In this document: piece after piece, positions 283-17,815 of the stretch
Numbering within the stretch: position 1 is the first letter of the stretch
How the letters are laid out: each line of letters opens with the position of its first letter
From: an uncultured Clostridia bacterium
GTDB lineage: Bacteria > Bacillota > Clostridia > TANB77 > CAG-508
Length of the DNA stretch: 64,000 nt
Direction of reading: 5' to 3'
Assembly (NCBI GenBank): GCA_944389125.1
Contig: CALXLF010000012.1
Location: 60-64,059 of the forward strand
Notes under the pieces: generated by a model
Told to the model about the DNA's origin: nothing
Databases searched by the model: none
The model's input: only the letters and a program-made list of their open reading frames with translations
Program-made: the position numbers and the translations under genes

Positions 283-888
283 TTATATATCTACTGAATA
301 TTCAACTGTTGAATAGTTTGGTGAAATTGTATTATTCGCAGTTATATTTATTGGAATTTCTTTATTTCCTTGATATGTTATATATAAAACTGCTTTAGTA
401 TAATTTGCTCCAGTAGTTATTGTGTCTAAATCTATTCTATATGATTCCCATGTAATTGTATCTCCTGATAATTTTTGTAATTCTTTAATAAGATTTACAA
501 ATTTAGCTTTATTTTTTATTGCCAAATTTATACAAATAGATTCAGATTCTTTATCATAATATTTCTCTATTTCCTTATCTGATGCATCTTTTAAATCTTT
601 ATAATATTTTGGTAAAACCTCTGTTGCAACATAATACATAGATTTTCCAATATCCATTATTGTTAAATCTCCTTGATATGCTCTTCCAAAGGCTGCTGAA
701 TAATCTGGGTATACTGTTTCATCATTCCATTGTTCACTATCATTTATATAGTCTAACTTTTCTGTTGCTAAGTCAGCTGTTGTAGGCCTAGTACTTAAAA
801 TTAATAATATAAATCCTAATATTAAAATCAGTACAATCAAAATTAATATTAATAATATTATTTTTCTTCTTTTTATTTTTAACTTCAT
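283..888 (-). CDS. Bitopic membrane protein (N-terminal TM, extracytoplasmic domain), last gene of operon; loose architectural paralog of 6884..7492
   Basis: 201-aa ORF; KRRK then poly-Leu/Ile TM helix; follows the giant hydrolase with a 60-bp gap. Confidence 0.6.
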   Translation of the reverse strand: MKLKIKRRKIILLILILIVLILILGFILLILSTRPTTADLATEKLDYINDSEQWNDETVYPDYSAAFGRAYQGDLTIMDIGKSMYYVATEVLPKYYKDLKDASDKEIEKYYDKESESICINLAIKNKAKFVNLIKELQKLSGDTITWESYRIDLDTITTGANYTKAVLYITYQGNKEIPINITANNTISPNYSTVEYSVDI

Positions 889-947
889 GCTAAGCCTCCT
901 ATATTAATTATTATTGAATTGAAGATTTATAAATAATCCTCAATTTC

Positions 948-3900
948 TTAGTCTTTTATTCCTCTTGAATCATCACCCATATAAATATCATATGCATTTT
1001 GTGCATAATGTTTTCTTAAATTTAACTCTTGATAATTTGTTCCTGGACTATACCATTGTGTAGGATCACTACCTCCTATACATGCTTCATAATATACTGC
1101 AAACAACTCTGCTGCTTGTTCAATATTAGTTAATGCTTTAAGTTCTGCCCATAAGTTTTCTGTCATTTGTCCTCTTCTTTCTGCTTCATATATAGCTCTT
1201 ATTTGTCCTGCATAATCAGTTTCATTATAACCTTGAGAAATAATCCATGCTCTAATTCCATCGCTAGCATCCCACCAATGACCTCCTGAATTACTTGTAT
1301 TCCATTGAGCTAATCCATGATATCCTGAAGGAGAAACAGCTGTTGGGTCTAAAGAACTTTCTTGTATTAGATTACCCATAATTCCAGCAGCTCCCTCTGG
1401 TGTAAATCCCTGAGACACAAAGTATGTAATAGCTGCCCTAACTTTTTCTGTATCTGATGAAGCTTCTGTTATTGCTTCTAAATCTCCATATTCTCCTGTT
1501 GTGTTTGAGCCACTTCCTTCTGGTTCTGGAATATCGAAATAATCTTCTACATTATCTATAATAGAATATTCTTTATCTTTTACCATTATTCTTATATAAT
1601 TTGCAGGCCCTGTATATTCTTCACCTTCTGGTGTATCACTAGAATCAGCTGGTTCTTCTTCAGAAGTTTCTGTTGTAGCTAATGCAGCTGATTCATCATC
1701 TGTATATGTAACACCAAGAAATTTACCTTCTTTTATATAATATCCTCTATTTGTATCTGATAAATCACAATTATATTCTTCTGGTAAACTTCCTAAATCT
1801 GCTGATTCTCCATAATTTACAAAGAATGGTGCATCATCTTTTTTCTGTTCTTCTTCTTCTCTGTTTTCTTGTTCTTCTGAATTATATAAAGCCATAACCT
1901 CATTTTGTTCATATGTTCCGTTATTTCCTCCATCATCAGTTGTATTTAAATCTACTTTAAATCCATCTATAGTTATTGTAAATCCTGCACATGTATCTTC
2001 ATATTCATCAAAGAATAGATTTAATCCATCTGCTGCAGCTTGATTGTCAATTCCATCTGTATCTGAACTATTATTTGCAACATTGTCTGCTGTAAAATAA
2101 TTTGTTCCTAATGCTTCAATTACTACATATCCTACCTCTTCTGTTTTTCCAGTATATACATTTTCTCTCTTATGTGTTCCATATTCTATTATCTTACCTG
2201 TTACTGGTGATGATACATATTCTCCACCTTCATATCCTTCAAATGATGATGTTGCTGCTCCACCATTAGCTCCTTCTATTCCACTTACTATATTATCATA
2301 CCATGTTTGATATGCTTCTTGTGAATTTAAATGTAGTCCATCTGATGTTAAGTCTGAACTTAAGTATCCATTTTCATCTTGTAATCCTGATGTAGCATCT
2401 ATAAAATATGCTCCATCTGTTGAATTACAATGTGATTGAACACTATTATTATATGAATCTATATTTGAATTCATTGTAGCTGCATCAATTGTAGTATATG
2501 CAGTTCCAACGTGATTAACCTTAACTACATAAACTGGTATATTATATCTTGTAATTAATGCATCTATCAAATTATTCATTGCATCTGCTGAGCTTGTATC
2601 ATTTACACCCAAGTATAAAACTATTGCTGATGCATCTGATGAAACTGTAATAGTATCTATTGACATTTCTGAACTTGAAGCGCTACTTCCTGTTATTCCA
2701 TAGAAATAAGATGTGTCTGCTACTCCTTGTGAACTTAATCCATCAATCCATGAATCTCCTACAAATTGTAGTTTTGATATATCTACATTTTCAGTGCTTT
2801 CGTTGTCATCTGTATCATCTTCTGGTACATCTTCAGCCCATTCTTCTGTTTCATCATCACTAGGTTCATAATCTATTTCATTTAAATAATCATATGTTCC
2901 TTTTGATTCAATCAATGCTCCATATTCTTCATCTTGTTTATCCCATGGTCTTACTGGCCATCCTACCGGACTTATATCTGGTAAAACCCATGTAAACACT
3001 TCTTCTATTGCATCTGATAAATCTTCTTTATCAAAATAATCTAATTCTACTATTAATTCTTTAAAATCTCTATATGCATATTCTGATGCTAGTGTTTTTG
3101 TATTTTCCAATATTGTAAATGCTTCTAATGAAGTTTTTGTTATATTTGTTGTTTTTATTAAACCTGGATTTCTTGGATCTCCTATTCTTAATTCTTCTCC
3201 ATCTTGCACAGTATAATCAAGGTCATATGTTTCTCTTATTGATATAGTATCTCCATTTTCATCTAAAGTAGCTATAAATGCCAAACTTCCGAGTTTATAA
3301 TCATTTTCTGGACAAGTAATTATACCTGAATAATACATATCTAATTGCCAATCTAACCATTGTTCAGTTACATCTTCCCAATCAAATGATAATTCGTCTG
3401 CAATTGTAAATGCATCTAAATAATCTAAGAAAGTCTGTTCATAAGTTTGTCTTAAAGCACTTCTACCAAACTTTCCTAATAAATCTTTAGCAACATCTTT
3501 AGCAGTGCCATAATTTGACATCAAATATCCTTGTGCCCAACTTAATACTGCTTCTTTATCTTTTGCGATTCTCATTGCTGTTTCTTCTGAACCATCATAT
3601 GTATAATATTTTCTATATTTAAATAACCATTTTACTGTTGGATTTGTTTGTGATCTTTGGGCATCTTCTACTTGTGTTACTTCATTTGTTGAAGTTATAT
3701 TATAATAAAATCCTCCTTCTTGATTTGGATAATCTTCTCCAATAGTATCATAAACATCATTAACTTCATCATTATCATCATCATACTCTACTCTTATCCA
3801 GCCTGTTGCAGCTCCATCAGAATTAAATTCATATGCAGACCATAAAACATTTTCTATTGGTGAATCAGATAAATCATCTAATGTTTTTACTTTAGCTTTT

Positions 3901-6641
3901 TTTACAAAAGCATGTCCTGCTTCTTCAGCCTCTTCTTCTGAGTCATAACTTGTACCTGATGTAACATTATATCTTGCTGCATATCCCTGCTGATAATCTT
4001 CTAAAACTGTATATGGATCTTCTAAAAAGTCTTCCATCTTAATATCTGATGTTATTCCATTTGGATATAAATAATATAGTTGATATTCTTCTGTTGGATT
4101 CCCTGATTCATCTTCTTTCATATCATACGCTGTCCAATATTCTCCAGTGTCTGCTAAATATTCTTCATCAACCTTAACAAAAGTTGCATTTTCTCCCCAT
4201 GAATTATCAATCATATCTTTTTCAGCTCGCGACCTTGGAGCTTCATTTATGTAATCTTGAATTGCCGTATCTGCATAACTCGGAACTATAAAATATGTAT
4301 CCCTAAACCAGCTACCTAAAACTCTTGAAATATATGGTGTATATGATGCATAATCTTGGTCAGATATTGCTGCTAAAGCTTGAATTACATCTTTTACATA
4401 TCTCTTGCAATTTGCACAACATTTTTCTAATCCAGGATCATCACTACATCTTGTTGTTTCAGGATCTACTGGAATATATTCTCCTGTTTCTTCATCATAT
4501 GTTAATAATCCAGCATCTACTAATTCTTGAGTTGTTTTATCTCTTATTATAAATTCAAATATAATTGTATCTACCCATATAGGTTCTTCATATTCAGTCT
4601 CTTCTTCTCCAGCAATAGTCATTCCTGTTTCATAAACAAGATATTTTACTGTTATCCATTCATACCCAACACTTTCTCCATTAACTTCTGCATAATATGT
4701 TCTAGTTGTTCTTACTTCTTTTGTTTTATAATTAGTATAATAAGCAATTGCCCCTGCTGATGGCATTAATACTTCTGTTTCAATCTCTCTTGTTTCTGGT
4801 TCACTTTCTGCAGCTTCTGATGCAACATATCCATAATCTGATAAATTTACTCCACTATCACTATCTGCAAAATAGCTATAATTATCATTCAAATATGCTT
4901 CATTACCAGTTCCTAAAGAAGCATCACAATTATCAACACTCATAATATAATGATTGTTATCTGAATCATAATAATAATATTCTTCATAATCATCAAAAAT
5001 ATCATAAATACTTGGTCTATCTTCTGCATTTTCAGTCAATCCATATGTATTTAATGAGTTGGTACTTGCCCATCTCCATCCAAAAACTGTATCATCTGTT
5101 GCAAGTACTATTACTTGATCTTGCGCTTGACCTGTACAATTTGGTGGACTCTTTAATGGTAAATTTACTAGTAAATCCTGTGCAGCACTTTTCGTAATTA
5201 CTAATCCATTTACCCATTCTAAGGCTGCCATATCATTTACTCCCCATGAAGCAACCCCATGTCCTGTATCTGACAAAGTTTGTTCTATTTTATCAATCAT
5301 TATTCTATCTTCATCATTTGAAATAGATTTTGATTCGTCTAACATATCAACATATGCTGCATCTACAGTTGAATCATCAGAATCTTCCAAATACACTTGA
5401 ACTTCCGTATCAAAACTTTGTAACATTGCATAAACCAAATCTGGTTGCATTGTTGCAATATGAAGTGATAATAAAAACTCTAAACTCATTCCATATCTAT
5501 CTGACCACCCATCTATTGTAAATACAGTTGGATTATTAAAGTGTCCATTTTTAACACTCATTTTTGCGCCTGTACTAGTTCTTGTTATTTTTATATCATC
5601 ACCATAAACAATCCAGTGTCCTAATCCGCTTGACCATTCACTAGTAGCTTGTCCATCTGCAGAATAATAAAATTTCAATAATCCTTTTGACCAAGCACTA
5701 TCATATCCACCATATGTTTGCTTTATTGTAGAATAAATATTTTTTAATAATCCTCCATCATTATTTCTTATTGAATAAATTCTATAATCTGATAATAAAT
5801 ATGTTCTAAGTAATGTTGTATCAACATTTAAATCTATTGCATCTAATAACCAATTATCACCAAAACTAACAATTTTTCCAGCTCCGCTATTAGATATATC
5901 TTCTGTTGATCTAAGAACACCATATTGATCTATATAATTATCACCCTCTACCATTAGTCCTGTACTATTATCTATTAATATTCCTAATGAATTATAATAT
6001 AATCCGTCATAAGCAGAATTTCCATCTGGATCTTCTTCTGCAGATTGACTATAATATCTAGCGTTTGTATCTTCTCCTCTTTTCTCAAAATAAATATATC
6101 CTTGTTCTGCTAGTTCAGCTGTTGTTAAATTTCCTGCTATTGTCGCATAATTTGGATTTGGATCAATAAAACCATAACCAACTAAATCATATTCAAGTTC
6201 TTCTAAATAATTAGCTAAATCAACAACATCTTGAGGATTAATATATGCATCTGCATCTGTTGTAAACCAACTTTGCACAGTATCTATTGCACCTTGGGCA
6301 AATTGTTTTAGTGCATTTATGGCTAATCCTGGAATAAACAAAATAAAACCGATTACTCCTACTATAACAAAAATAATTATTACTACTATTGCAATTATAA
6401 GTAAAATCTGTGGAGGTATATTCTTTAAAAAATTAATTATTTTCTTTACTTTATCTGCAGTCTTTTTTATACCTTTTGCAATATCTCCTAAACCTTTTTT
6501 TCCTTGTTCTTCTGGTTTTGCCTCAGGATCTAATACATCTACTTCTTTTTTTTCTAATGGATTTTTTCCTCCACCACTACCAGGTAATTTTGGAACATTT
6601 CCACCACCTGGTAATCCTGGTGTTCCATCTGTATCAGCCAT
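948..6641 (-). CDS. Giant (1897 aa) membrane-anchored multidomain cell-wall hydrolase. N-terminal TM anchor, ~1200-aa shared central region, SGNH/GDSL-type esterase domain, C-terminal Phage_lysozyme2-type (phage tail lysozyme) domain. VirB1-like functional analog
   Basis: Uninterrupted 5.7-kb ORF. GDSW..GVNDT..DGLHLN SGNH blocks (~nt 2290..2770). AAGIMGNLIQESSLDP motif at C-terminus (~960..1450). N-terminal 2/3 is ~80-90% identical to the 7528..13470 paralog. Confidence 0.75.
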   Translation of the reverse strand: MADTDGTPGLPGGGNVPKLPGSGGGKNPLEKKEVDVLDPEAKPEEQGKKGLGDIAKGIKKTADKVKKIINFLKNIPPQILLIIAIVVIIIFVIVGVIGFILFIPGLAINALKQFAQGAIDTVQSWFTTDADAYINPQDVVDLANYLEELEYDLVGYGFIDPNPNYATIAGNLTTAELAEQGYIYFEKRGEDTNARYYSQSAEEDPDGNSAYDGLYYNSLGILIDNSTGLMVEGDNYIDQYGVLRSTEDISNSGAGKIVSFGDNWLLDAIDLNVDTTLLRTYLLSDYRIYSIRNNDGGLLKNIYSTIKQTYGGYDSAWSKGLLKFYYSADGQATSEWSSGLGHWIVYGDDIKITRTSTGAKMSVKNGHFNNPTVFTIDGWSDRYGMSLEFLLSLHIATMQPDLVYAMLQSFDTEVQVYLEDSDDSTVDAAYVDMLDESKSISNDEDRIMIDKIEQTLSDTGHGVASWGVNDMAALEWVNGLVITKSAAQDLLVNLPLKSPPNCTGQAQDQVIVLATDDTVFGWRWASTNSLNTYGLTENAEDRPSIYDIFDDYEEYYYYDSDNNHYIMSVDNCDASLGTGNEAYLNDNYSYFADSDSGVNLSDYGYVASEAAESEPETREIETEVLMPSAGAIAYYTNYKTKEVRTTRTYYAEVNGESVGYEWITVKYLVYETGMTIAGEEETEYEEPIWVDTIIFEFIIRDKTTQELVDAGLLTYDEETGEYIPVDPETTRCSDDPGLEKCCANCKRYVKDVIQALAAISDQDYASYTPYISRVLGSWFRDTYFIVPSYADTAIQDYINEAPRSRAEKDMIDNSWGENATFVKVDEEYLADTGEYWTAYDMKEDESGNPTEEYQLYYLYPNGITSDIKMEDFLEDPYTVLEDYQQGYAARYNVTSGTSYDSEEEAEEAGHAFVKKAKVKTLDDLSDSPIENVLWSAYEFNSDGAATGWIRVEYDDDNDEVNDVYDTIGEDYPNQEGGFYYNITSTNEVTQVEDAQRSQTNPTVKWLFKYRKYYTYDGSEETAMRIAKDKEAVLSWAQGYLMSNYGTAKDVAKDLLGKFGRSALRQTYEQTFLDYLDAFTIADELSFDWEDVTEQWLDWQLDMYYSGIITCPENDYKLGSLAFIATLDENGDTISIRETYDLDYTVQDGEELRIGDPRNPGLIKTTNITKTSLEAFTILENTKTLASEYAYRDFKELIVELDYFDKEDLSDAIEEVFTWVLPDISPVGWPVRPWDKQDEEYGALIESKGTYDYLNEIDYEPSDDETEEWAEDVPEDDTDDNESTENVDISKLQFVGDSWIDGLSSQGVADTSYFYGITGSSASSSEMSIDTITVSSDASAIVLYLGVNDTSSADAMNNLIDALITRYNIPVYVVKVNHVGTAYTTIDAATMNSNIDSYNNSVQSHCNSTDGAYFIDATSGLQDENGYLSSDLTSDGLHLNSQEAYQTWYDNIVSGIEGANGGAATSSFEGYEGGEYVSSPVTGKIIEYGTHKRENVYTGKTEEVGYVVIEALGTNYFTADNVANNSSDTDGIDNQAAADGLNLFFDEYEDTCAGFTITIDGFKVDLNTTDDGGNNGTYEQNEVMALYNSEEQENREEEEQKKDDAPFFVNYGESADLGSLPEEYNCDLSDTNRGYYIKEGKFLGVTYTDDESAALATTETSEEEPADSSDTPEGEEYTGPANYIRIMVKDKEYSIIDNVEDYFDIPEPEGSGSNTTGEYGDLEAITEASSDTEKVRAAITYFVSQGFTPEGAAGIMGNLIQESSLDPTAVSPSGYHGLAQWNTSNSGGHWWDASDGIRAWIISQGYNETDYAGQIRAIYEAERRGQMTENLWAELKALTNIEQAAELFAVYYEACIGGSDPTQWYSPGTNYQELNLRKHYAQNAYDIYMGDDSRGIKD

Positions 6642-6835
6642 GCTTTTCTCCTTTCTATAATATTTGCTACATTAAATTTATAATACCTAATTTCTATTTT
6701 TAAAAAACTGATTATTTAATTATAAACTAATAAAAATCTTATATAAATCATCTTCCCCTTATATTATATCATATCAAATGTATATTTTAAAAACAACAAT
6801 ATAAGATAAAATTCCTTAATTTTAATTTATAATAT

Positions 6836-6868
6836 AAGCACTAATTTTCAATAAAATTAGTGCTTACA
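6836..6868. terminator. Hairpin terminator between the two giant-hydrolase modules
   Basis: Inverted repeat aagcactaatttt/aaaattagtgctt downstream of the 6884..7492 gene. Confidence 0.45.
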
Positions 6869-6883
6869 ATTTTTATATTTTAT

Positions 6884-7492
6884 TTAAAAATTTTCTGGCG
6901 TCTCCTGTGGAGGCATTATTTCTAAAGATGATACATTTTTCTTTTTATCATTTGATAGCTTAACAGTAAATTCAATATCCCCATAATCTTTATAATTAAA
7001 TTTCATCTTAAAATAACTATATTCATTAGAATTAAAAACTGTACCTTTTTCATATAAACAATAATTAAATTCATTTCCAGAAATATCATTTTCAACCAAA
7101 TAATTTGCTAAATTAATGAAATCATCTTTATTTTTAACTCCTATAAGTTTTGTTATATCATCATAATTTTCATCATAAAATTTCCCAAAATCGTCTGATT
7201 CTTTTAATGATGATACTAAATCAGGTAAATAACTAGAAACTGAATATAATTGTTCATAAAATTCGTCTCTCTTTACATCACCAGTATACTCTCTCATAAA
7301 AGTAGATATGCCTTGAGGAATTATTTTTCCTTCAAGATATTCTGATATATTTTTTTCTTGTTTGCTAGGGTCAATTGTTTCTTTATTAGAATTTCTTACT
7401 AAAGCAATTATAGTAATACATAAAATAGCAATACATATTAAAATTGCAATTATTATAAATATTAAACATTTTTTTCTTTTTTTAACACTCAT
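6884..7492 (-). CDS. Bitopic membrane protein (202 aa) paired with upstream giant hydrolase
   Basis: ORF with KKRKK then TM helix; same position and architecture as 283..888. Confidence 0.6.
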   Translation of the reverse strand: MSVKKRKKCLIFIIIAILICIAILCITIIALVRNSNKETIDPSKQEKNISEYLEGKIIPQGISTFMREYTGDVKRDEFYEQLYSVSSYLPDLVSSLKESDDFGKFYDENYDDITKLIGVKNKDDFINLANYLVENDISGNEFNYCLYEKGTVFNSNEYSYFKMKFNYKDYGDIEFTVKLSNDKKKNVSSLEIMPPQETPENF

Positions 7493-7527
7493 ATATTAAA
7501 CTCCTTTAAAATTCTAATAATTAATTT

Positions 7528-10500
7528 CTAGTTATAAGTACAAACTGAGAAGTTACCATTCAAATAATCTGTAAATGGTGTTTCTGTACTAAATACTAAT
7601 TCTCCACCTGAGTCATAACAATGGAAGAATTTTCCTTCACTCCACATTCTATATTCTGATTCTCTTCTCGTTCTTAATCCTGGATATTCACCCCATTGTC
7701 CACTTCCTAATGTTGTCCAAGTACTTGCAATTGTTCCTTCATCACCAGAACGAATTGCTTGTTCTAAGGAATCAGGAATTTCTCCAAAATTATAGTAAAC
7801 TGAAATTAATGCAGCCATTTGAGTTTCTGTAAATGTTTGACCTGGGAATAATTCTTGAATTCCTGCAACATTTGTATCTATTTCCGCAACTGCAACATCA
7901 TTACATACCTCAATTGGAATATGATCTCCTGCATTCATACCCACATTACTTCCTCTAGTGTTATTAACATATTCTTGATATCCTAAATTCCAGAATAATT
8001 CATTACACCAGTTAGTTACACCAAAAGCAGCAGTTATTGTTCCATCACCAATGTCTCCAGCAATTGAATATCCTTGAGTTATTGCTTGATCTAAACTAGA
8101 ATCTCCTCCTCCTTTTCCTTCTGTATCAACTAAAAGCCAGTATAAAAATTCTTCTGAATATTCACCTGTGAATATATCTCCATTTCCGCTATCATCTTCT
8201 GGATCTGGAATATTAAAGTAATCTTCTACATTATCTATAATAGAATATTCTTTATCTTTTACTATTATTCTTATATAGTTTGCTGGTCCTTCATATTCTT
8301 CCTGTGTTGTATCAGTAGAAGAAGTATCTGTTGTAGTTAATCCAGCTGATTCATCATCTGTATATGTAACTCCAAGGTATTTACCTTCTTTTATATAATA
8401 TCCTCTATTTTCATCTGATAAATCACAATAATATTCTTCTGGTAGACTTCCTAAATCTGCTGATTCTCCATAATTTACAAAAAATGGTGCATCCTCTTTT
8501 GCTTGTTCATTTTCTTCTCTTTCTTCTTGCTCTGCTGAATTATATAAAGCCATAACTTCATTTTGCTCATATGTTCCATTATTTCCTTCATCATCTGTTG
8601 TATTTAAATCTACTTTAAATCCATCTATAGTTATTGTAAATCCTGCACATGTTTCTTCATATTCATCAAAGAATAGATTTAATCCATTTGCTGCAGCTTC
8701 ATTATCAATTCCTTCTGTATCTCCACTATTATTTGCAACATTGTCTGCTGTAAAATAATTTGTTCCTATTGTTTCAATTACTACATATCCAACATCTTCT
8801 GTTTTTCCAGTATATATATTTTCTCTTTTATGTGTTCCATATTCGATTATCTTACCTGTTACTGGTGATGATACATATTCTCCGCCTTCATATCCTTCAA
8901 ATAGTGATGATCCAACTCCACTTGGAGTATTATCTGGAATCCAAACCATTACTCCACTAGTTGCATTTATACAACTCATTAATGCCTCTATGCCTCCAGT
9001 ATTCTCAAGCCTACTATAATCACCATCAACTGAATCTGCTGTATATATTGTTGAACCATCAACACCTATTACACATATAAAGTGTCCACTTGATGTTGTC
9101 CATGGCCCTACACTTTCTTGTGGTGGCATATATACTATTATAGGTTTTCCTGCATTAAATGCTGTATTAATTTTATTTTCTAAGTCATCTGTATACCATT
9201 CTCCACTTACGCCATTATCATTTAAAAATTTATCCATTGTTGTAGATCTTTGACTACTATTAAATGCTGATGTTCCATAATTTTCATGAATATATTCAAC
9301 TGTTGTCAAAGGATTTACTTCTTCATTTACATATCCTGATAATAATGATGAAATAGAATATATTCCACAGCCCATACTTCCAAGAGTTGTATCTGCACTA
9401 TTATCATTTGCTATTTGTGTACTACCTTCTTGATAAGGATATATAGTTCCAGATCCTCCTCCACCATAATATCCGCCTTGACTAAATTGTTTAAATTCTG
9501 TTCCATAAGCAGATATAATATATGAATAGTGTCCTTCAGAAGTATTTTGATCTGCACTTTCTATAGAAATTCCTGAATTATTATTACTATTATTTGAATT
9601 ACTATCAGAATTATCAGTATTTCCAGAATTACTTGAATTGTCATCATCTTCTGTTTCGTTATCTTCTCCATATCTTATATCTTTTAAATAATCATAAGTT
9701 CCTTTTGATTCAATCAAAGCTCCATAATCTTCATCTTGTTTATCCCATGGTCTTACTGGCCATCCTACTGGACTTATATCTGGTAAAACCCATGTAAATA
9801 CTTCTTCTATTGCATCTGATAAATCTTCTTTATCAAAATAATCTAATTCTACTATTAATTCTTTAAAATCTCTATATGCATATTCTGATGCTAACGTTTT
9901 CGTATTTTCTAATATTGTAAATGCCTCTAAAGATGTTTTTGTTATATTTGTTGTTTTTATTAAATCTGGATCTCTTGGATCTCCTATTCTTAATTCTTCT
10001 CCATCTTGTGGGGTATAATCAAGGTCATATGTTTCTCTTATTGAAACTGTATTTCCATCTTCATCTAATGTTGCTATAAATGCTAAATCTCCTAATTTAT
10101 AGTCATCTTCAGGACATTCAATTATTCCTGAATAATACATATCTAATTGCCAATCTAGCCATTGTTCTCTTATTTCATTCCAATCAAATGTTATTGTTGT
10201 TCTATCATATGCTTGTCTTAATGAACTTCTTCCATAATCTCCTAATTTTCCAGCTACATCACTAGGACCTGTTGTAACTCCATATTCTCCAATTAAGTAA
10301 TTTGTAACCCAATTTAGTACTGCTTCTTTATCTTTTGCGATTCTCATCGCTGTTTCTTCTGATCCATCATATGTATAATATTTTCTATACTTAAATAACC
10401 ATTTTACTGTTGGATTTGTTTGCGATCTTTGTGCATCTTCTATTTGTGTTACTTGATTTGTTGAAGTTATATTATAATAAAATCCTCCTTCATCATTATA

Positions 10501-13470
10501 GTAATCCTGGTCTGATGCTAATGCTGTTATATCATAAACATTATTTACTTCTTCATTATCATCTCCATATTCTACTCTTAACCATCCTGTTGCTGCTCCA
10601 TTTGAATTAAAACTATATGCAGACCATAAAATGTTATTTCCTTCTTGATATGATGTTAATTGTGAAACTGTTTTTGTTACTGCTTTTTTTACAAAAGCAT
10701 GTCCTGCTTCTTCTGCTTCTTCTTCTGTTCTATAGCTCATACCTGATGTGATATCATATCTTGCTGCATATCCTGATTCATAATCTTCTAAAACTGTATA
10801 TGGATCTTCTAAAAAGTCTTCCATCTTAATATCTGATGTTATTCCATTTGGATATAAGTAATATAATTGATATTCTTCTGTTGGATTTCCTGATTCATCT
10901 TGTTTCATTTCATATGCTGTCCAATATTCTCCTGTTTCTGCTAAATAATCTTCATCTACTATTACTAATTCTGACTCTCCCCATGAATTATCAATCATAC
11001 TCAGCTCTGATGGCGACCTATTTGATTCATTTTTATAATCCGTTATTGCTGCATCTTCTTCTTCTGATATTGAAAAATATGTATCTCTAAACCAGCTACC
11101 TAAAACTCTTGCTATATATGGTGTATATGATGCATAATCTTCATCTGTTACTTGTGCTAATGCTAATATTACTTTCTTTACATACTTTTGACAATTTTTA
11201 CAACATTTAGTTTGATCATTACTGCTATCTGCATCATGATTTACTGCACTACACACTTGACTTCTTGGGGTTGAAGCTCCTGTTTCATCTATTGCTCCAC
11301 ATGCTACTAATTCATCAAATGTCTTATCTCTTGTTATATATTCCCAAACTATAACTGTAGTAAATATTGGTTGATCATATTCTGTATATCCACTGGCAAG
11401 TACATTTTGATCATATCCAACTGTATATACAACAAATTTATATGTAACCCATTCATATTCTACTTCTTCAGTTAATCCATCTGAGTCAAGTATCTCATTT
11501 CCATTTACATCTCTAGCTGTTGCTGTCCATGTTCTTGTTGTTTTTGTTCCATCTATATCAAATACACTGCCATCAAATAAATTATTACAATAAATATCAT
11601 CTTCATTATCATGTTCTACATCATCATTTTCCATGTTTTCCAAATCATATCCTAAATTTAATCCAATATCTTTGAAGAACATAAAATGATCATCATCTAT
11701 TATATTTTCCAATGTATCTGAATATCCATATCCTGTATCTATAACATCATCGTAACTTGTGCCCCTGTCAGCTATCCTGTATGTACAGTTCTTAGCTTTA
11801 AAGTCAACATATTCACCTTCATCAGTTTCAACATCTCTATTAGAAATTTCCACATTTGCAGCTTCTTCACCCATATCTGTTTTATCTATATCATATAGTG
11901 TTAAATAATCATCCCATGAAAATACTCCTGTATCTTTATATGTTGATTTTAAAATTATATCAACTTCTGCTGCTCCTGTACAGTTTGGTGGACTTTCTAA
12001 TGGTAAATGATCTAATAAATATTGTGCATCCGCTTTTGATATTGCAAGTCCACTTAATCCTGATGTTAGATACATATCATTTACTAACCAGTCATTTAAA
12101 TCTATTCCTCCTTGTTCATCTAGTGTAGCTTTTACATCTGCAAATGATATCATATCTGCTTCATTTCCAAGTTCAACATCTCTATTTAGCATATCTAAAT
12201 ACGCTGCTTCAACCTCCGCTTCTCCTGAATCATTTAAATATACTTGCACTTCTGTATCAAAACTTTGTAACATTGCATATACTAAATCTGGTTGCATTGT
12301 TGCTATATGAAGTGATAATAAGAACTCTAAATTCATTCCATATCTGTCTGCCCATCCTTCTATATCAAATATGGTTGAATTATTAAAGTATCCATTTCTT
12401 ATACTCATTGTTGTTCCATTTATTTTTATCTTATCTCCATATACTATTGAATCCCAGTCAGCTGACCATGCGCTATCTGCTATTCCATCTACTGCATAAT
12501 AGAATTTTAATAATCCTTTTGACCATGCTGAATCATATCCTCCAAATGTCTTTTTTATTCTTGAATATAATTTATTAAGAAACGTTCCATCTGCATTTCT
12601 TATTGCATATATTTTATAATCTGATAATAAATATGTTCTTAGTAGTTTTGTATCAACTGTCCAACCAGCAATTCCTGATAGCCAATCATTTCCAAATCCT
12701 ACTATTTTTCCTGCTCCACTATTTGATGTCTCTTCTGTTGATCTTTCTAATCCATATTGATCTACATATTCCCCATCAACTGCTTCTCCAGTTCTATTAT
12801 CAACTAATATTCCTAATGAATTATAATAATTTCCATTAAATGCAGAGCTTCCATCCGGATCTTCTTCAGCTGATTGACTATAATATCTTGCGTTTTCATC
12901 ATCTCCTCTTCTCTCAAAATAAATATATCCTTGATCTTGTAATTCTGTATATGTTACTATTCCAAGATCCTGTGAAAAATTCGGATTAGGAGTTATAAAT
13001 CCATAACCTACTAAATCATACTCTAATTCTTCTAAATAATTTGCTAAATCTACAACATCTTCTTCATTAATATATGCATCTGCTTCTGTTGTAAACCAAC
13101 TTTGTACAGTATCTATTGCGCCTTGAGCAAATTCTTTTAGAGCATTTATTGCTAAGCCTGGTATAAATAATATAAATCCTATTACTCCTACTATAACAAA
13201 AATAATTATTACTACTATTGCTATTATAAGCAAAACTTGAGGTGGTATATTTTTTAAGAAATTTATTAGTTTCTTTATTTTATCTATAGATTTTTTTATA
13301 CCTTTTGCAATATCACCTAATCCCTTTTTTCCTTGTTTTTCAGGCTTTGCTTCAGGATCTAATACATCTAATTCTTTCTTTTCTAATGGATTTTTTCCTC
13401 CGCCGCCGCTACCTGGTAATTTTGGAATATTTCCTCCTGGTAGACCTGGCTTACCTCCTGTATCAGCCAT
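7528..13470 (-). CDS. Giant (1980 aa) membrane-anchored multidomain cell-wall hydrolase. N-terminal TM anchor, shared central region, C39-like/CHAP-like cysteine peptidase domain, C-terminal GH24 (T4-lysozyme-like) domain
   Basis: Uninterrupted 5.9-kb ORF. GSMGCGIY...GHFICVIGVDG Cys/His pair (~nt 8930..9400). TETQMAALISVYYNFG GH24 signature (~7640..8130). N-terminus nearly identical to 948..6641 paralog. Confidence 0.75.
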   Translation of the reverse strand: MADTGGKPGLPGGNIPKLPGSGGGGKNPLEKKELDVLDPEAKPEKQGKKGLGDIAKGIKKSIDKIKKLINFLKNIPPQVLLIIAIVVIIIFVIVGVIGFILFIPGLAINALKEFAQGAIDTVQSWFTTEADAYINEEDVVDLANYLEELEYDLVGYGFITPNPNFSQDLGIVTYTELQDQGYIYFERRGDDENARYYSQSAEEDPDGSSAFNGNYYNSLGILVDNRTGEAVDGEYVDQYGLERSTEETSNSGAGKIVGFGNDWLSGIAGWTVDTKLLRTYLLSDYKIYAIRNADGTFLNKLYSRIKKTFGGYDSAWSKGLLKFYYAVDGIADSAWSADWDSIVYGDKIKINGTTMSIRNGYFNNSTIFDIEGWADRYGMNLEFLLSLHIATMQPDLVYAMLQSFDTEVQVYLNDSGEAEVEAAYLDMLNRDVELGNEADMISFADVKATLDEQGGIDLNDWLVNDMYLTSGLSGLAISKADAQYLLDHLPLESPPNCTGAAEVDIILKSTYKDTGVFSWDDYLTLYDIDKTDMGEEAANVEISNRDVETDEGEYVDFKAKNCTYRIADRGTSYDDVIDTGYGYSDTLENIIDDDHFMFFKDIGLNLGYDLENMENDDVEHDNEDDIYCNNLFDGSVFDIDGTKTTRTWTATARDVNGNEILDSDGLTEEVEYEWVTYKFVVYTVGYDQNVLASGYTEYDQPIFTTVIVWEYITRDKTFDELVACGAIDETGASTPRSQVCSAVNHDADSSNDQTKCCKNCQKYVKKVILALAQVTDEDYASYTPYIARVLGSWFRDTYFSISEEEDAAITDYKNESNRSPSELSMIDNSWGESELVIVDEDYLAETGEYWTAYEMKQDESGNPTEEYQLYYLYPNGITSDIKMEDFLEDPYTVLEDYESGYAARYDITSGMSYRTEEEAEEAGHAFVKKAVTKTVSQLTSYQEGNNILWSAYSFNSNGAATGWLRVEYGDDNEEVNNVYDITALASDQDYYNDEGGFYYNITSTNQVTQIEDAQRSQTNPTVKWLFKYRKYYTYDGSEETAMRIAKDKEAVLNWVTNYLIGEYGVTTGPSDVAGKLGDYGRSSLRQAYDRTTITFDWNEIREQWLDWQLDMYYSGIIECPEDDYKLGDLAFIATLDEDGNTVSIRETYDLDYTPQDGEELRIGDPRDPDLIKTTNITKTSLEAFTILENTKTLASEYAYRDFKELIVELDYFDKEDLSDAIEEVFTWVLPDISPVGWPVRPWDKQDEDYGALIESKGTYDYLKDIRYGEDNETEDDDNSSNSGNTDNSDSNSNNSNNNSGISIESADQNTSEGHYSYIISAYGTEFKQFSQGGYYGGGGSGTIYPYQEGSTQIANDNSADTTLGSMGCGIYSISSLLSGYVNEEVNPLTTVEYIHENYGTSAFNSSQRSTTMDKFLNDNGVSGEWYTDDLENKINTAFNAGKPIIVYMPPQESVGPWTTSSGHFICVIGVDGSTIYTADSVDGDYSRLENTGGIEALMSCINATSGVMVWIPDNTPSGVGSSLFEGYEGGEYVSSPVTGKIIEYGTHKRENIYTGKTEDVGYVVIETIGTNYFTADNVANNSGDTEGIDNEAAANGLNLFFDEYEETCAGFTITIDGFKVDLNTTDDEGNNGTYEQNEVMALYNSAEQEEREENEQAKEDAPFFVNYGESADLGSLPEEYYCDLSDENRGYYIKEGKYLGVTYTDDESAGLTTTDTSSTDTTQEEYEGPANYIRIIVKDKEYSIIDNVEDYFNIPDPEDDSGNGDIFTGEYSEEFLYWLLVDTEGKGGGDSSLDQAITQGYSIAGDIGDGTITAAFGVTNWCNELFWNLGYQEYVNNTRGSNVGMNAGDHIPIEVCNDVAVAEIDTNVAGIQELFPGQTFTETQMAALISVYYNFGEIPDSLEQAIRSGDEGTIASTWTTLGSGQWGEYPGLRTRRESEYRMWSEGKFFHCYDSGGELVFSTETPFTDYLNGNFSVCTYN

Positions 13471-13493
13471 GACCTTTCTCCTTTCTACAATAT

Positions 13494-14447
13494 CTACTGC
13501 ATTGAAATTGTCATACTGGCCTTATATATTGCATTATCTATTTCTTGTTGAGCTGTTTCTTCATCTCCGGTATAATTTTCCATAACTCTTACAGCATTTA
13601 AAACTAAAGAATCTACTTTTGTTTCTGAATCATAAAATTTAGAAAACGAAATTGATACATTCTTAGTTTCTCCAGGAGCTAAAACAATTTTTGTATCCTT
13701 TTCCATGCATCCTCTTGTTTCATCTCCTATATTTATATAAATTTCTGTATCATCAGTATTTCCATCTTGGATTACAACTGTATAATTACTTCTATTTGTA
13801 AATTGTAAATTATAAATTATAAAACTATATTTTTCTACAGATTTTGTTATTCTAGCTACTAAATAATCATTTGATGCTTGATATTGAAGATCTTGTGACC
13901 CCATATAATTTCCAACTGAAAATACTATGTTTCCACCATCATCTTTACTAATAGCCATTTTTTCTTCAACATATCTATAACTTTGATTTGTAAGTCCTGT
14001 TGCTAAAAAGTTATCATATAATTTTACACTATATATGTACGTATCATCTACTTTTGAATAACTTTGTATTGCATAACTCTTTGTAGAGTTAAATTTTTCT
14101 GAAACATAATTTACAAAATTATTATAACTATTTCCAAAAAAGTTCTTTTTACAATCATCTGAAACTAAATTATATGCACTAACATAATCTCCATTATTAC
14201 AATATTTAACATAATTTTCTATAAATTCTTCAAAACTATCTGCATACTCTTTTGGAACATCCTCTGTATTTAATACTGTAGTATGTGGCGTATAAGAAGT
14301 TTCTGGAGCTTCTGGAGCATTATTTAAAGTAAGTAATCTATTAATAATTATGACTAAAATAAGTGCAAATACAATTATAATTATTAATTTACCATATTTT
14401 TTGAAAAAATTTCTAATTTTTATTCTTACATCTGGATTAATTGTCAT
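13494..14447 (-). CDS. Bitopic membrane protein (317 aa), T4SS-operon accessory
   Basis: ORF with N-terminal TM (KLIIIIVFALILVIII) and secreted domain. Confidence 0.55.
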   Translation of the reverse strand: MTINPDVRIKIRNFFKKYGKLIIIIVFALILVIIINRLLTLNNAPEAPETSYTPHTTVLNTEDVPKEYADSFEEFIENYVKYCNNGDYVSAYNLVSDDCKKNFFGNSYNNFVNYVSEKFNSTKSYAIQSYSKVDDTYIYSVKLYDNFLATGLTNQSYRYVEEKMAISKDDGGNIVFSVGNYMGSQDLQYQASNDYLVARITKSVEKYSFIIYNLQFTNRSNYTVVIQDGNTDDTEIYINIGDETRGCMEKDTKIVLAPGETKNVSISFSKFYDSETKVDSLVLNAVRVMENYTGDEETAQQEIDNAIYKASMTISMQ

Positions 14448-14449
14448 AA

Positions 14450-15010
14450 TTATTCCTCCTCTGAATCTACTGCGCTATTTCTACTAAATGATAAAACATA
14501 ATCATTAAAATCATTTTCTTTAATAACAACATTCATACTAAAATTATGTCCTCTAGAACCATTTAAAGTATCATTTACATTTACCCAAAGAACATATATA
14601 TCTCCTAATCTTTCAAAATTAGTATAACTTAAGGAAAAATCATCTGGAAAATAATCTTCCATATATTTTGAAAAACTTTCTTTTGTTGGAAAATAATTTT
14701 CTTTGTATTCAGAATATAGTAAATCATAAGCTTTATCATAATTTCTAGTATCAACTAATTTAAAGAATTCTGCACAATAATAAGTAATTCTTTCTTGTTC
14801 TGACATATTATATAAAGCTTCTAATTCTGCCTGGTTATTCGCCTCTTCTATTTCGTTTGTTACAAGAGTTGCTTGACCATTACCAGAAGATACTGAATTT
14901 TTTTGTTTAAAGAAAAGTAGAACAAATAAAACAACTAAAATTATCACTATAACTATTCCAATTGATATCATTAATGCTTTTCTCTGTTTTTTATTTTTAT
15001 CTTCTGCCAT
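14450..15010 (-). CDS. Bitopic membrane protein (186 aa)
   Basis: ORF; N-terminal TM helix; tightly coupled to neighbours. Confidence 0.55.
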   Translation of the reverse strand: MAEDKNKKQRKALMISIGIVIVIILVVLFVLLFFKQKNSVSSGNGQATLVTNEIEEANNQAELEALYNMSEQERITYYCAEFFKLVDTRNYDKAYDLLYSEYKENYFPTKESFSKYMEDYFPDDFSLSYTNFERLGDIYVLWVNVNDTLNGSRGHNFSMNVVIKENDFNDYVLSFSRNSAVDSEEE

Positions 15011-15028
15011 AATTTTTCCCCCTTAATT

Positions 15029-17815
15029 TTAAGCACGTTTTCTTCTATTTAAATCATTTAAAACTGTATTACTTTGTGGTGTAGGATCTGCTTGAGCCAT
15101 ACCATTGTTTATTGGAGTTCTTTGTTGAATATTTGCTGTTTGACTTCTAACTGATACATTTCTACTACTATAACTTGTTGAAGTATCATTTTCAGCCATA
15201 CTTGCTGATGCAATAAACATTCCTGCTTGTTGAGCTTCAACCATAAGTTCAGCATATTGTCTACCTGCAGGAGTTAACATTCTTGCATTAGCTTCACTTT
15301 GATCTGCTTTAAACTTTTCAAGTCTTTTAACAGCTATATCTCCTTCTCTTCTAACAGCTTCTTCTGCTTTAGCAAAATTACTTTGACTATAAGCCCCAGA
15401 TTTTGCTTTTTCTAAAACTCTTGTATTAAATTGCAATAAACTAGCTTCACTAAAATCACCTTCAACATTTATTTCACCATCAATTGCCTCTAATATTTTA
15501 GCATTATTTATTGTGGCTCTACGTGTACTTCTCATTACAGAAGTTAATGTTTTCTTTGAAAGGCCTAAATCTTTTGTAATATCAACAACTTCACCTTCAG
15601 CTACTTCTACTTTAGTTTCTTCTGGTTTTTCTTCAAGTTTTTCTGGAGCAAATTCTTTAATTAAATTATTTATAGTATTATCATCAGCTTCAAGACCATA
15701 TTCTGCAAAATTTTTCTTTAATTCATCAATTCCAATTTCTCCATTTTTATATTTTTCTAGCCTTCTCATTAAATCACGAATAAATTCTTCTCGAACTTGA
15801 GGATCTCTATAATTTTTCTCATTTCTCCATCTTGAGATAATATTATTTCTATCAATGAATTTTTCAATATTATCTTTAGTTAATTCTGTTGCTTCTGGTT
15901 TTTTAGCTTTATCTTCTTTTCTCTGTTCTTCTCTCTCTTTTTCTATATCACCTAAGCCAAATTTATCTAATAGATTTTGTATTGTTTTTTCATCATATTC
16001 TAAACCATGTTCTTCAAAACGCTTTATAATATCTTCTAGTTCAGCATGTCCATCTCTATATTTTTGTAATATATCTTCTAAATCTCTAATAAAATCTGCT
16101 TTTTCTTTATCATCTAGATAATTTTTATCTGAACCGCCTGGTCCTCTTCTATCATGAGCAGTTTTTCCAAAAAATCCTTCTTCTTCAAAATGTTCTTCTA
16201 TATTTTCTTCATTAAGCTCTTCAGTCTTTTTCTCATTATCTTCTTCATTTTCTTCATCATGCTGAGTTGATCTAACAGCTGCTGCGACTCTTTCTGTATC
16301 TTCACTTGATAATGATCTGCCTGGCAACAAAATTGGTATTGGCTCACCTTCTTGTTCATCAGCTGACTCATCATTACCATCTAATTCCTTGTATTCTGCA
16401 TCTACTACATCATCTTCATCTTCATCTAATCGTCTATATTCTGCATCTACCACATCATCTGATGAATCTCCTCCCGAATCTAAAGTTCTTTCATGATTGT
16501 CAAGCCAATTAACAGCTTTATCTCTATACTCGTGAACTTTATTAGAAGCTCTTTGTCCTATTGTTTGAATATTACTTCCAAAAGTTGTTGTATTATTAGA
16601 AAGATTATTATTTACTGTATAAGTACCATTTGCAATACTTACTCCTGTTAATAATGCTCTTTGACTATTATTAACTACAGAGCTGAAAGATGTAAGTGTT
16701 GTAGATTTATCAAATCCGAATAATGATTTTAGCAATTCTTCTGCTTTCTTTACGAACATTAAAGCTATAATCAATATCAATGGTTGTGTTAAACTACTAA
16801 TACTTCCTATTGAAGCTGAACTAATTGCAGACATAGGAACTGCTACTATAACAACATATATTAAACAATGTATAACTTGTATAAATACATTATATACAAA
16901 TTCTCTAAGCCATCCATTTAAAGAAACTGCCTTTCCTCCTTTTGCTTTATCAATTGAATATGTAAGTGGCATAATTGGAGAGAGTACTATTAAAAATATT
17001 ACTTTGAAAAGTCTTACAATATATATAACTGCAAATGCCATTGTTTGTACTGTAAGTATTGAATAAGCTATTGTTGAGCCCCAGCCAAGTAAGAAGTTTA
17101 CTGAAAAAGCAGCAGATCTTAATGAATCAATCATACCAGATACATCTGCTCCTTCAGCTACTTGTGCAATAAGGTCAACTAAGAATTCATTTACTGTAAT
17201 TACCGCCAGGATAATCAAATGCATAAGAAAAACTAATCCAGCACTAACTAACCAATCAAAAAACATTGTTTTAATTCTTGCTTTTTCTTCTGCAAGTGAT
17301 GCTAAAGCCATTTTAATTCCTATCAATAATAACATAATTAAAAGTATTCCAATTGATACTGCTCTAACAACATAATAAAGCATTGCAGCAGTTTCTCTTA
17401 TACTATAAACTAAATCTCCTCCACTTGTACTTTCTATATCATCTGTTTGGAAAATATTTATATTGGTTAAAGTAAACTTATTGAAAAATATATCAAAAGG
17501 AGTTATTGTAGGTGATACATCACCAGTATTTCCAGCCGTATTTATAACGAAATATGCAAGAGTCTGACATAACATAGAACATACATTTATTAACGCCCTT
17601 GGTATCCACGTTAAAATACCAGCTAATCCATTTAAAAATCCTCCTAATAAATTATCTGCTTCTTCTTCTGCATCTTGTGCCACTTCATTATCACTTGGTG
17701 GATCATCAGCAAAAACTACATTAACTTTACTAACTGAACCAATTAAAAAGTTAAATAGTAGTAAAAATACTAACAGACATATTATTAACTTTTTTGATAT
17801 ACTTTTCATTTTCAT
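15029..17815 (-). CDS. VirB6-like polytopic membrane protein (928 aa) with acidic/coiled-coil C-terminal region containing two tandem ~65-aa repeats
   Basis: Signal peptide plus multiple TM helices; motif EEKARIKTMFFDW shared with the other two VirB6-like paralogs; repeats KNYLDDKEKADFIRDL.../KNYRDPQVREEFIRDL... Confidence 0.6.
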   Translation of the reverse strand: MKMKSISKKLIICLLVFLLLFNFLIGSVSKVNVVFADDPPSDNEVAQDAEEEADNLLGGFLNGLAGILTWIPRALINVCSMLCQTLAYFVINTAGNTGDVSPTITPFDIFFNKFTLTNINIFQTDDIESTSGGDLVYSIRETAAMLYYVVRAVSIGILLIMLLLIGIKMALASLAEEKARIKTMFFDWLVSAGLVFLMHLIILAVITVNEFLVDLIAQVAEGADVSGMIDSLRSAAFSVNFLLGWGSTIAYSILTVQTMAFAVIYIVRLFKVIFLIVLSPIMPLTYSIDKAKGGKAVSLNGWLREFVYNVFIQVIHCLIYVVIVAVPMSAISSASIGSISSLTQPLILIIALMFVKKAEELLKSLFGFDKSTTLTSFSSVVNNSQRALLTGVSIANGTYTVNNNLSNNTTTFGSNIQTIGQRASNKVHEYRDKAVNWLDNHERTLDSGGDSSDDVVDAEYRRLDEDEDDVVDAEYKELDGNDESADEQEGEPIPILLPGRSLSSEDTERVAAAVRSTQHDEENEEDNEKKTEELNEENIEEHFEEEGFFGKTAHDRRGPGGSDKNYLDDKEKADFIRDLEDILQKYRDGHAELEDIIKRFEEHGLEYDEKTIQNLLDKFGLGDIEKEREEQRKEDKAKKPEATELTKDNIEKFIDRNNIISRWRNEKNYRDPQVREEFIRDLMRRLEKYKNGEIGIDELKKNFAEYGLEADDNTINNLIKEFAPEKLEEKPEETKVEVAEGEVVDITKDLGLSKKTLTSVMRSTRRATINNAKILEAIDGEINVEGDFSEASLLQFNTRVLEKAKSGAYSQSNFAKAEEAVRREGDIAVKRLEKFKADQSEANARMLTPAGRQYAELMVEAQQAGMFIASASMAENDTSTSYSSRNVSVRSQTANIQQRTPINNGMAQADPTPQSNTVLNDLNRRKRA

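Follow-up and report, generated by a model that had tools for sequence, protein, structure and literature searches.

Tandem giant wall hydrolases with two exchangeable cassette slots in a VirB4-bearing operon of uncultured gut Clostridia

In a 64,000-nucleotide window of an uncultured Clostridia bacterium (contig CALXLF010000012.1), positions 283..13470 hold four minus-strand open reading frames (ORFs) in two units, each made of a giant gene, here called A and B, followed by a gene for a bitopic protein of about 200 amino acids (aa). We consider it fairly probable that A and B are enlarged, modular wall-breaching components of the VirB1/PrgK type, each served by a cognate partner that resembles PrgL and docks or restrains it. 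This reading follows from the enzymatic tail of the giants, in which a degenerate LytM domain (dLytM), a muramidase, a Cys-peptidase and a downstream bitopic partner mirror PrgK and PrgL of the Enterococcus faecalis plasmid pCF10. Both units stand at the end of a ~34-kb operon on the minus strand (34690..283) that also has genes for a VirB4 ATPase and VirB2-like pilins, as in type IV secretion systems (T4SS), and the similarity of the small partner tracks the lysozyme cassette in the second of two exchangeable slots of the giant, not the scaffold that carries both slots.

Results

Catalytic cassettes and the degenerate LytM

The segment plan of the giants, given in A coordinates and listed with its positions in Table 1, was obtained from an alignment of 31 relatives that was scored segment by segment. 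Slot 1 of A matched Peptidase_C39_2 (PF13529; E 2e-8) with 35.4 bits, the gathering threshold being 24, when aa 1296-1515 were scanned alone, a match that was missed by the Pfam scan of the full-length protein. The same profile matches 17/17 homologues of this cassette, in which one Cys and one His are invariant. Slot 1 of B reached 36.8 bits against Lipase_GDSL_2 (PF13472, gathering threshold 32.9) and has both the GDS and the DGLH motif of the SGNH hydrolases. Slot 2 of B matched Phage_lysozyme2 (PF18013) with E 1e-20 and 74.7 bits, the threshold being 28.2, as well as the muramidase (MUR) region of PrgK (E 9e-5), and it shows a weak likeness to phi29 gp13. Slot 2 of A, when scanned alone, stayed under the threshold of Phage_lysozyme (PF00959; 19.5 vs 22.3 bits); a homologue with a cassette 79% identical to it passes this threshold with 23.4 bits, and a profile of 24 cassettes homologous to it matches solved lysozymes and endolysins with E 3.5e-7, one entry among these being named a GH24 family muramidase. 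All 24 members of this family share one Gly and one Asp, and the Glu that precedes is kept in at least 90% of them. The four catalytic assignments made in an earlier note on this DNA (C39-like, GH24, SGNH and Phage_lysozyme2) are all supported by profile matches together with motifs.

Block 3, the ~240 aa between the two slots, is the segment with the highest nucleotide similarity between A and B (89%). Its structural model, with a predicted local distance difference test (pLDDT) of 76, has the beta-core fold of M23 peptidases. The M23 zinc ligands and catalytic residues (HxxxD, HxH) were not found in the 19 aligned sequences, which hold no invariant His or Asp and read IRI at the expected HxH position. 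It is this lack of any invariant His or Asp that makes block 3 a degenerate, non-catalytic LytM, for which both the modelled fold and the loss of the metal ligands speak. Degenerate non-catalytic LytM domains also occur in EnvC and SpoIIQ.

Two marks of the VirB1-like class of hydrolases were found in this arrangement, in that a glycan-cleaving domain is paired with a peptidase-type domain (C39_2 with GH24 in A, SGNH with Phage_lysozyme2 in B) and in that the hydrolase domains would be external and held by an N-terminal anchor. The Lys-rich tail of ~75 aa is followed in both A and B by a hydrophobic stretch of 33 residues (aa 76-108), and by the positive-inside rule the giants are predicted to be N-in, C-out with the remaining ~1800 residues extracellular.

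The small partner follows the slot-2 cassette

In 60/68 cases a giant is followed by a gene of one and the same bitopic family (~200 aa), whose products, in being bitopic, of this length and encoded next to a hydrolase gene, resemble the VirB8-like proteins PrgL, TraM and TcpC. The partners of A and B are 21-25% identical. Among pairs with a scaffold identity of 0.6-0.8, the small proteins were 75% identical where the giants had the same slot-2 type (n=29) and 19.5% identical where the slot-2 types differed (n=66). The nearest neighbour judged by small protein had the same slot-2 type in 50/59 cases, compared to 19/57 for the nearest neighbour by scaffold and 0.20 expected by chance. Small-protein identity was 0.40 in pairs with the same slot 2 and a different slot 1, and in the converse pairs it was 0.19, which is the baseline. 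Such co-variation of partner and slot 2 is equally expected of a protein that binds the muramidase and of an immunity protein.

Position in a VirB4 operon

Like hydrolases of the VirB1-like class, the giant genes lie in a T4SS cluster with VirB4. Three tandem VirB2-like pilin genes head the operon, and two further proteins, one of 385 aa and the other the 1285-aa SLBB protein, contain fused pilin-like domains. Several other operon proteins have only weak matches to components of Mycoplasma integrative and conjugative elements (ICEs), and neither a relaxase nor VirD4 was found within the operon 34690..283. Housekeeping genes, for Dtd, CvpA and a DUF5711 protein, precede it. Homologues of the 1285-, 928-, 186- and 317-aa proteins were detected beside giants in 44-48/73 loci, and from this synteny the giant family appears as a fixed component of the operon. 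The Tad-type 'TANB77 pilus' (PMC11680825) is a different gene cluster.

The earlier note had set the two proteins apart from a VirB1-type lysin. This separation does not hold, because the giants are syntenic within the VirB4/VirB2 operon and because their tail and downstream bitopic protein repeat the PrgK/PrgL plan. Its remark that the giants exceed the VirB1 analogs more than twofold in size is correct with respect to PrgK, which has 871 aa.

Scaffold anatomy

The two slots are preceded by a scaffold of ~1150 aa, predicted to be extracellular and without known fold, for which no match among PDB sequences was obtained by phmmer with A and B as queries. Tail and anchor (aa 1-119) are ~90% identical in amino acids between A and B with a ratio of non-synonymous to synonymous substitution rates (dN/dS) of 0.08. 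Scaffold block 1 has the invariant motifs GW..RYG and LSLH..T..P..L, block 2 opens with a Cys cluster, KCCxNCxxYVK, and just before slot 1 the protein identity of A aa 1171-1230 to B is 100%. Inside the scaffold lies a variable region of ~320 aa (A 431-754) with ~32% identity to B, so that the near-identical central region of ~1200 aa reported earlier is a mosaic. The variable region had been overlooked at that point, as had the degenerate LytM between the slots and the tracking of the C-terminal cassette by the partner. At least two types of this insert occur in close relatives, and distant members lack it. It was modelled, with low to moderate confidence, as long beta-hairpins and may be an exposed, fast-evolving arm. 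No wall-binding repeats of the LysM, SH3 or cell-wall-binding (CWB) kinds were found in A or B with Pfam.

Family distribution and cassette repertoire

A word-indexed search gave 31 relatives, all metagenome-derived and none informatively named. Scanning with a hidden Markov model (HMM) profile of the scaffold yielded 714 clusters at 50% identity, of which 384 had E ≤ 1e-30. When one genome was scanned for each GTDB species, 70 loci emerged, all in metagenome-assembled genomes (MAGs) of uncultured gut Clostridia. Names such as CAG:354, Ca. Scatovivens and Ca. Merdicola among them would fit the GTDB order TANB77/CAG-508, and Ca. Scatovivens is placed by NCBI in Clostridiaceae incertae sedis. 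Gene product A had no tblastn match in 72,556 plasmid records and none in 50,697 phage records, so that no known plasmid or phage is the source of the family. In an ORF and HMM census of the GTDB-species loci most had one giant copy; two copies were found in the window and in L004, L006, L023, L025, L032, L037, L039 and L041, three in L030 and L031, four in L024 and five in L026. Giants stand back to back in L026 (1-18477), L024, L030 and L031, three to five in number and mostly without small genes between them. Several of these are split by frameshifts and could, in such distant MAGs, be pseudogenes or sequencing errors.

The cassette repertoire was determined by clustering the segments between conserved blocks and scanning representatives with Pfam. 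Slot 1 holds peptidases of the NlpC/P60/CHAP type in 47 members, SGNH and/or C39_2 in 18, at times both or together with NlpC/P60, and in a few members a papain-like module without assignment. Slot 2 is of the GH24 type in 24 members, Phage_lysozyme2 in 8 and Hydrolase_2 (SleB-like) in few, and three slot-2 clusters had no Pfam match. One slot-2 cassette of ~240 aa, present in 20 genes, has the motif ES..GIxQWT, of which E..G and QxT are invariant and the Trp is kept in at least 90%, and it has several conserved Cys besides; this cluster of 20 members, which matched neither Pfam nor PDB sequences, may be an undescribed lysozyme/SLT-like family, SLT-like being a guess. Judged by these domain contents, slot 1 is predicted to attack peptides or O-acetyl groups and slot 2 the glycan strand.

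Among close relatives the cassettes and the scaffold insert are shuffled into four module combinations: insert type a with C39 and GH24 (A), type a with a papain-like module and lysozyme2 (P0002), type b with SGNH and GH24 (P0003), and type b with SGNH and lysozyme2 (B). The earlier proposal of one conserved delivery scaffold with exchangeable wall-active cassettes was thus supported and extended: across ~70 species, in one to five tandem copies, the slots hold NlpC/P60/CHAP, C39_2, SGNH, GH24, Phage_lysozyme2 and Hydrolase_2 modules and several cassettes without assignment. A conserved delivery region with alternative C-terminal enzyme domains among close relatives is also one mark of polymorphic toxins.

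Cassette exchange and gene conversion

ORFs and alignments agree with the earlier description of A and B as intact tandem paralogs, each followed by a bitopic protein of ~200 aa. Residues 1-1808 of A and 1-1753 of B are 58.8% identical (blastp), and blastn gave three conserved blocks with nucleotide identities of 79.7% (gene nucleotides 1-1284), 81.6% (2263-3824) and 89.0% (4550-5275). Two stretches had been reported as more than 90% identical in nucleotides, and for 2940..3330 vs 9700..10100 the measured value was 92.5%, while for 6330..6641 vs 13160..13470 it was 86.7%, which is high but lower than claimed.

The scaffolds of the window and of L006, a distant species with a tandem pair of the same two cassette types, are 48-50% identical in all four A/B pairings, whatever the cassette type. 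The cassettes pair by type (GH24 48%, lysozyme2 57%) and so do the partners (0.32 and 0.41, with cross pairs at 0.20-0.23). Paralog scaffolds within one genome are 56-78% identical. The synonymous distance (dS) between A and B differs by block: the N-terminal tail and block 1 have values of ~0.5-1.1, block 2 has 0.3-0.8, and block 3 is lowest with 0.12-0.19. The simplest account of these comparisons would be that an old duplication carried two different units of slot-2 cassette and partner, that repeated gene conversion homogenises the scaffold within a genome, and that cassettes are swapped at conserved junctions, such as ...DNVEDYF ahead of slot 2 and the fully identical residues A 1171-1230 ahead of slot 1.

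Diversifying selection on the cassettes had been suggested, with dN/dS along the paralogs as the check. The conserved blocks were found to be under purifying selection (dN/dS 0.08-0.6), and values across the cassettes were rejected as meaningless since the aligned domains are non-homologous and cannot yield a valid dN/dS, so diversifying selection was not shown. The pattern is one of recombinational cassette exchange and gene conversion, not of diversification by point mutation.

Features of the window

Coordinates are collected in Table 1. Long perfect hairpins with 14-bp and 17-bp stems were seen 3' of each small partner gene, at the ends of the giant-plus-small units. The 242-nt spacer upstream of gene B has extended -10 promoter-like sites, so gene B may have a transcript of its own. 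About 310 nt past the small partner of B, the same species has a tRNA-Gly, and after it an integrase and an HTH_17 gene (L001 23499-24994). These make up a second tRNA-integrated element, which lies just beyond the window; the start of the window (1-40) probably cuts the tRNA-Gly. On the other side of the operon, the region 45436-55247 has, in this order, a tRNA-Pro (45436-45511), a gene for a tyrosine integrase (45869-47065), genes for a DUF3846 protein, a helix-turn-helix regulator and an FtsX-type permease, and a gene for a Mob_Pre relaxase (54306-55247). It looks like an integrative mobilizable element without a transfer machine of its own. The minus strand at 56668-58191 encodes a 507-aa protein in which an ADP-ribosylglycohydrolase domain (E 2e-72) is accompanied by ~200 additional C-terminal residues.

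Table 1. Positions of the two giant genes, their segments, their partners and the upstream operon in the window.
Feature	Position	Strand	Description
Gene A	13470..7528	-	1980 aa, intact; tail, transmembrane anchor, scaffold, C39_2 peptidase, degenerate LytM, GH24-type lysozyme
A tail and anchor	13144..13470	-	Lys-rich tail aa 1-76, hydrophobic anchor aa 76-108
A conserved scaffold block 1	12181..13173	-	aa 100-430; B counterpart 5337..6344
A variable scaffold region	11209..12180	-	aa 431-754; B counterpart 4425..5336
A conserved scaffold block 2	9646..11208	-	aa 755-1275; B counterpart 2841..4424
Cys cluster opening block 2 in A	11173..11208	-	KCCKNCQKYVKK; in B at 4389..4424
A slot 1, Peptidase_C39_2	8926..9585	-	domain aa 1296-1515; slot aa 1276-1516
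A C39_2 catalytic Cys	9355..9372	-	GCGIYS
A C39_2 catalytic His	9073..9090	-	SGHFIC
A block 3, degenerate LytM/M23-fold	8197..8922	-	aa 1517-1758; ends in junction motif NYIRIIVKDKEYSIIDNVEDYF
A slot 2, GH24-type lysozyme	7531..8196	-	aa 1759-1980; Glu in LLVDTEGKGG, Asp/Thr motif in DIGDGTITAAFGVT
Small bitopic partner of A	7492..6884	-	202 aa, N-terminal hydrophobic anchor
Spacer between unit A and gene B	6642..6883	-	242 nt, AT-rich; terminator-like hairpin 6835..6866, promoter-like sites 6791..6763
Gene B	6641..948	-	1897 aa, intact; tail, transmembrane anchor, scaffold, SGNH esterase, degenerate LytM, Phage_lysozyme2
B tail and anchor	6315..6641	-	counterpart of the N-terminal tail and hydrophobic anchor of A
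B slot 1, SGNH/GDSL hydrolase	2292..2789	-	aa ~1285-1450
B SGNH motifs	2739..2765, 2325..2342	-	FVGDSW, DGLHLN
B block 3 counterpart	1515..2264	-
B slot 2, Phage_lysozyme2 muramidase-type	981..1439	-	aa 1735-1887; Glu in GNLIQESS
Small bitopic partner of B	888..283	-	201 aa, N-terminal hydrophobic anchor
Hairpin after unit B	186..226		matches hairpin 6835..6866
Upstream part of operon	13494..34690	-	three VirB2-like pilins, VirB4, pilin-domain fusions, 1285-aa SLBB, 928-, 186- and 317-aa proteins
VirB4 ATPase	28974..30974	-	NCBIfam conju_CD1110 E 5e-60; VirB4_plasma E 4e-57
Three tandem VirB2-like pilins (PF18895)	33578-34690	-	head of operon
QWT-motif slot-2 cassette	loci L013, L030, L032, L034-L037, L049-L076

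Discussion

The shared plan, together with the match of slot 2 of B to PrgK, makes the tail of the giants and the small gene a PrgK/PrgL-like module. The machine they would serve is a chromosomal T4SS-like apparatus of monoderm type, with a VirB4 of the CD1110/Mycoplasma-ICE kind and with VirB2 pilins, in uncultured low-GC gut Clostridia, and A and B would be its functional counterparts of VirB1 and PrgK, made ~2.3-fold larger by the ~1150-aa extracellular scaffold. As far as can be read from the sequence, the Lys-rich tail and the single anchor would keep the giant protein in the membrane beside the machine, and the scaffold may bring the enzymatic head into or past the wall of the producer itself. 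Within this head the domains identified in slot 1 would be directed at stem peptides or O-acetyl groups and those in slot 2 would cleave the glycan. That an SGNH esterase should precede a muramidase is plausible, because muramidases are inhibited by O-acetylated peptidoglycan (PMC11323569). The dead LytM between the slots could be a peptidoglycan-binding or auto-regulatory module, as in PrgK, and the bitopic protein, which co-varies with slot 2, may dock or restrain its cognate cassette in the way that PrgL binds PrgK.

Some observations weigh against a role as VirB1/PrgK-type components. An assembly factor with a housekeeping role would not usually come in tandem arrays or have its cassettes shuffled. 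In some lineages (L026, L031) three to five giants adjoin one another with no intervening small gene, so the partner is not obligatory. The small partner, moreover, had no significant match in Pfam (48 members), in PDB with a profile or against PrgL by hhalign, a result that is uninformative for families as divergent as these.

The giants and their partners could instead form a polymorphic effector–immunity system, a reading that we regard as unlikely although it has real arguments in its favour. The giants would then be contact-dependent weapons or epibiont attack tools that lyse the walls of other bacteria, and the small proteins would be cognate immunity proteins or inhibitors that shield the wall of the producer. 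A conserved N-terminal part followed by variable C-terminal cassettes with sharply conserved junction motifs, in arrays of up to five copies, is what such a system would look like, and the cassettes are shuffled against the scaffold while the downstream gene co-varies with the C-terminal cassette, an argument that was absent from the earlier note. The ectodomain of the partner would share a compartment with the hydrolase, and the operon without relaxase and VirD4 resembles systems of the Patescibacteria that are tied to epibiotic growth (PMC12102498). Against this, the partners form one homologous family (60/68) for all lysozyme types, whereas immunity proteins to unrelated toxins are normally unrelated, and several arrays have no partners. 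The signal anchor looks uncleaved and no recognisable signal for release or translocation was seen. A homology comparison of the DNA that follows the small genes turned up neither orphan cassettes nor immunity fragments, and Pfam gave no pretoxin or delivery domain, so that these traits of toxin systems are missing. In most genomes there is one copy only, and its synteny is fixed, and both the adjacency and the co-variation of the partner are explained by the precedent of PrgK and PrgL. There is a small chance that the giants are surface-displayed wall-lysing warheads, used for killing, predation or epibiotic attachment by the T4SS-like machine of reduced-genome gut Clostridia, with self-protective small proteins; if this were true, they would make up a monoderm T4SS-linked polymorphic effector–immunity system on a new delivery scaffold of ~1150 aa.

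That the giants are general surface autolysins or adhesins, active in wall turnover, cell separation or attachment and only co-located with the secretion operon, is quite improbable. Multi-domain hydrolases with SGNH, NlpC/P60 and lysozyme domains are common as housekeeping autolysins, and gene B has an apparent promoter-like region of its own as well as a terminator-like hairpin. This does not account for the same operon position in at least 44-48/73 loci, with genes of housekeeping type coming directly after the family where the locus continues to the contig end, nor for the lack of LysM, SH3 and CWB repeats in A and B, and the dLytM-muramidase plan fits a T4SS hydrolase. An assembly artefact, by which two alleles or strains of one gene were placed side by side, is hardly credible. 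The sequence is from a MAG, the 80-89% nucleotide identity of the conserved blocks is in the range that confuses assemblers, and the related contig L002 begins ~280 nt upstream of its giant gene. The A/B pair, however, was found on three separate contigs of the same species (238-261 kb, from separate assemblies), by which an artefact is ruled out for practical purposes. Tandem giant-plus-small pairs recur in distant MAG species as well, with the same two cassette types in L006, L039 and L041, and the cassettes of A and B are unrelated, their partners 21-25% identical and their spacers unique.

Comparison with known systems

The genes of pCF10 are ordered PrgJ (VirB4), PrgK (871 aa) and PrgL (208 aa), and PrgK consists of a membrane anchor, a degenerate LytM, a phi29 gp13-related muramidase domain of the Phage_lysozyme2 type and CHAP (PMC11323569). 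Its muramidase is restrained by the LytM and CHAP domains, PrgL binds PrgK and is placed on the MUR domain by an AlphaFold model, and the extended PrgK spans only to about the middle of the wall (PMC11323569). The giants resemble this pair in their VirB4 operon, N-terminal anchor, external hydrolase domains and added Cys-peptidase domain, in the order of dLytM before muramidase and in the bitopic protein of ~200 aa encoded directly downstream. They differ in length (1897-1980 aa against 871 aa) and in the scaffold, of which no counterpart was detected in PrgK, and their peptidase or esterase stands before LytM, whereas that of PrgK stands after the muramidase. Block 3 gave only a weak 20-residue match to PrgK by hhalign, and the small partners have no detectable similarity to PrgL. 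Unlike PrgK, the giants are a family with exchangeable cassettes and tandem arrays, and unlike the plasmid system of pCF10 they are chromosomal, in an operon without relaxase or VirD4 and with VirB2-like pilins, which are lacking in MPF-FATA systems (PMC12102498).

The two-domain T4SS hydrolases of Firmicutes combine the same kinds of activity. TraG of pIP501 is built of SLT and CHAP (PMC11323569). Most giants share this pairing of a glycan-cleaving domain with a Cys-peptidase, having an NlpC/P60/CHAP-type slot 1 and a lysozyme-type slot 2. The pairing is likewise found in TcpG of pCW3 (glucosaminidase and NlpC/P60) and in CwlT of ICEBs1 (muramidase and NlpC/P60). By their descriptions TraG, TcpG and CwlT are far smaller than the giants and are without scaffold, LytM, SGNH or C39-like variants or paralog arrays. 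The phi29 tail lysin gp13, which also joins a lysozyme to a LytM, has the reverse domain order and an active LytM, and no phage genes surround A and B.

The conserved delivery part, the swappable C-terminal modules beyond junction motifs and the co-varying downstream gene are shared with CdiA-CT/CdiI, Rhs, LXG and the X-Tfe/X-Tfi pairs of Xanthomonadales. Some X-Tfe effectors are peptidoglycan hydrolases. The giants differ from these polymorphic toxins in having partners of a single family for all cassette types, in the absence of orphan modules and of XVIPCD-, LXG- or VENN-type domains (Pfam), in being seemingly permanently anchored, and in having two variable slots and a scaffold insert compared to one C-terminal tip.

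T4SSs of Patescibacteria (Saccharimonadia and others) are chromosomal with pilin arrays and no relaxase, and in one strain the peptidase and lysozyme genes downstream of virB4 are reported to be essential for epibiotic growth (PMC12102498). By description they are like the present operon in the chromosomal location, a VirB4 of monoderm lineage, arrays of PF18895 pilins and the missing relaxase. They belong to another phylum, their hydrolases are separate and of ordinary size, and the giant scaffold family is unreported there. The role of a chromosomal, relaxase-less and pilin-bearing T4SS in abundant gut Clostridia, a question shared with the Patescibacteria, can be approached through the giant family.

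Compared to PrgK and PrgL, four things are new in the giants: a scaffold of ~1150 aa, the choice of SGNH or C39-like modules, a plug-in design that comes with paralog arrays, and a chromosomal setting with pilins. The known wall hydrolases of Gram-positive T4SSs are a few small proteins of plasmids and ICEs, and to these the giants add a large family unnamed in databases, in which a PrgK-like enzymatic logic is set on a scaffold with two plug-in slots and a partner gene matched to one of them. The family is a natural experiment on the targeting and restraint of wall enzymes, and a source of candidate combinations of peptidoglycan esterase, peptidase and muramidase.

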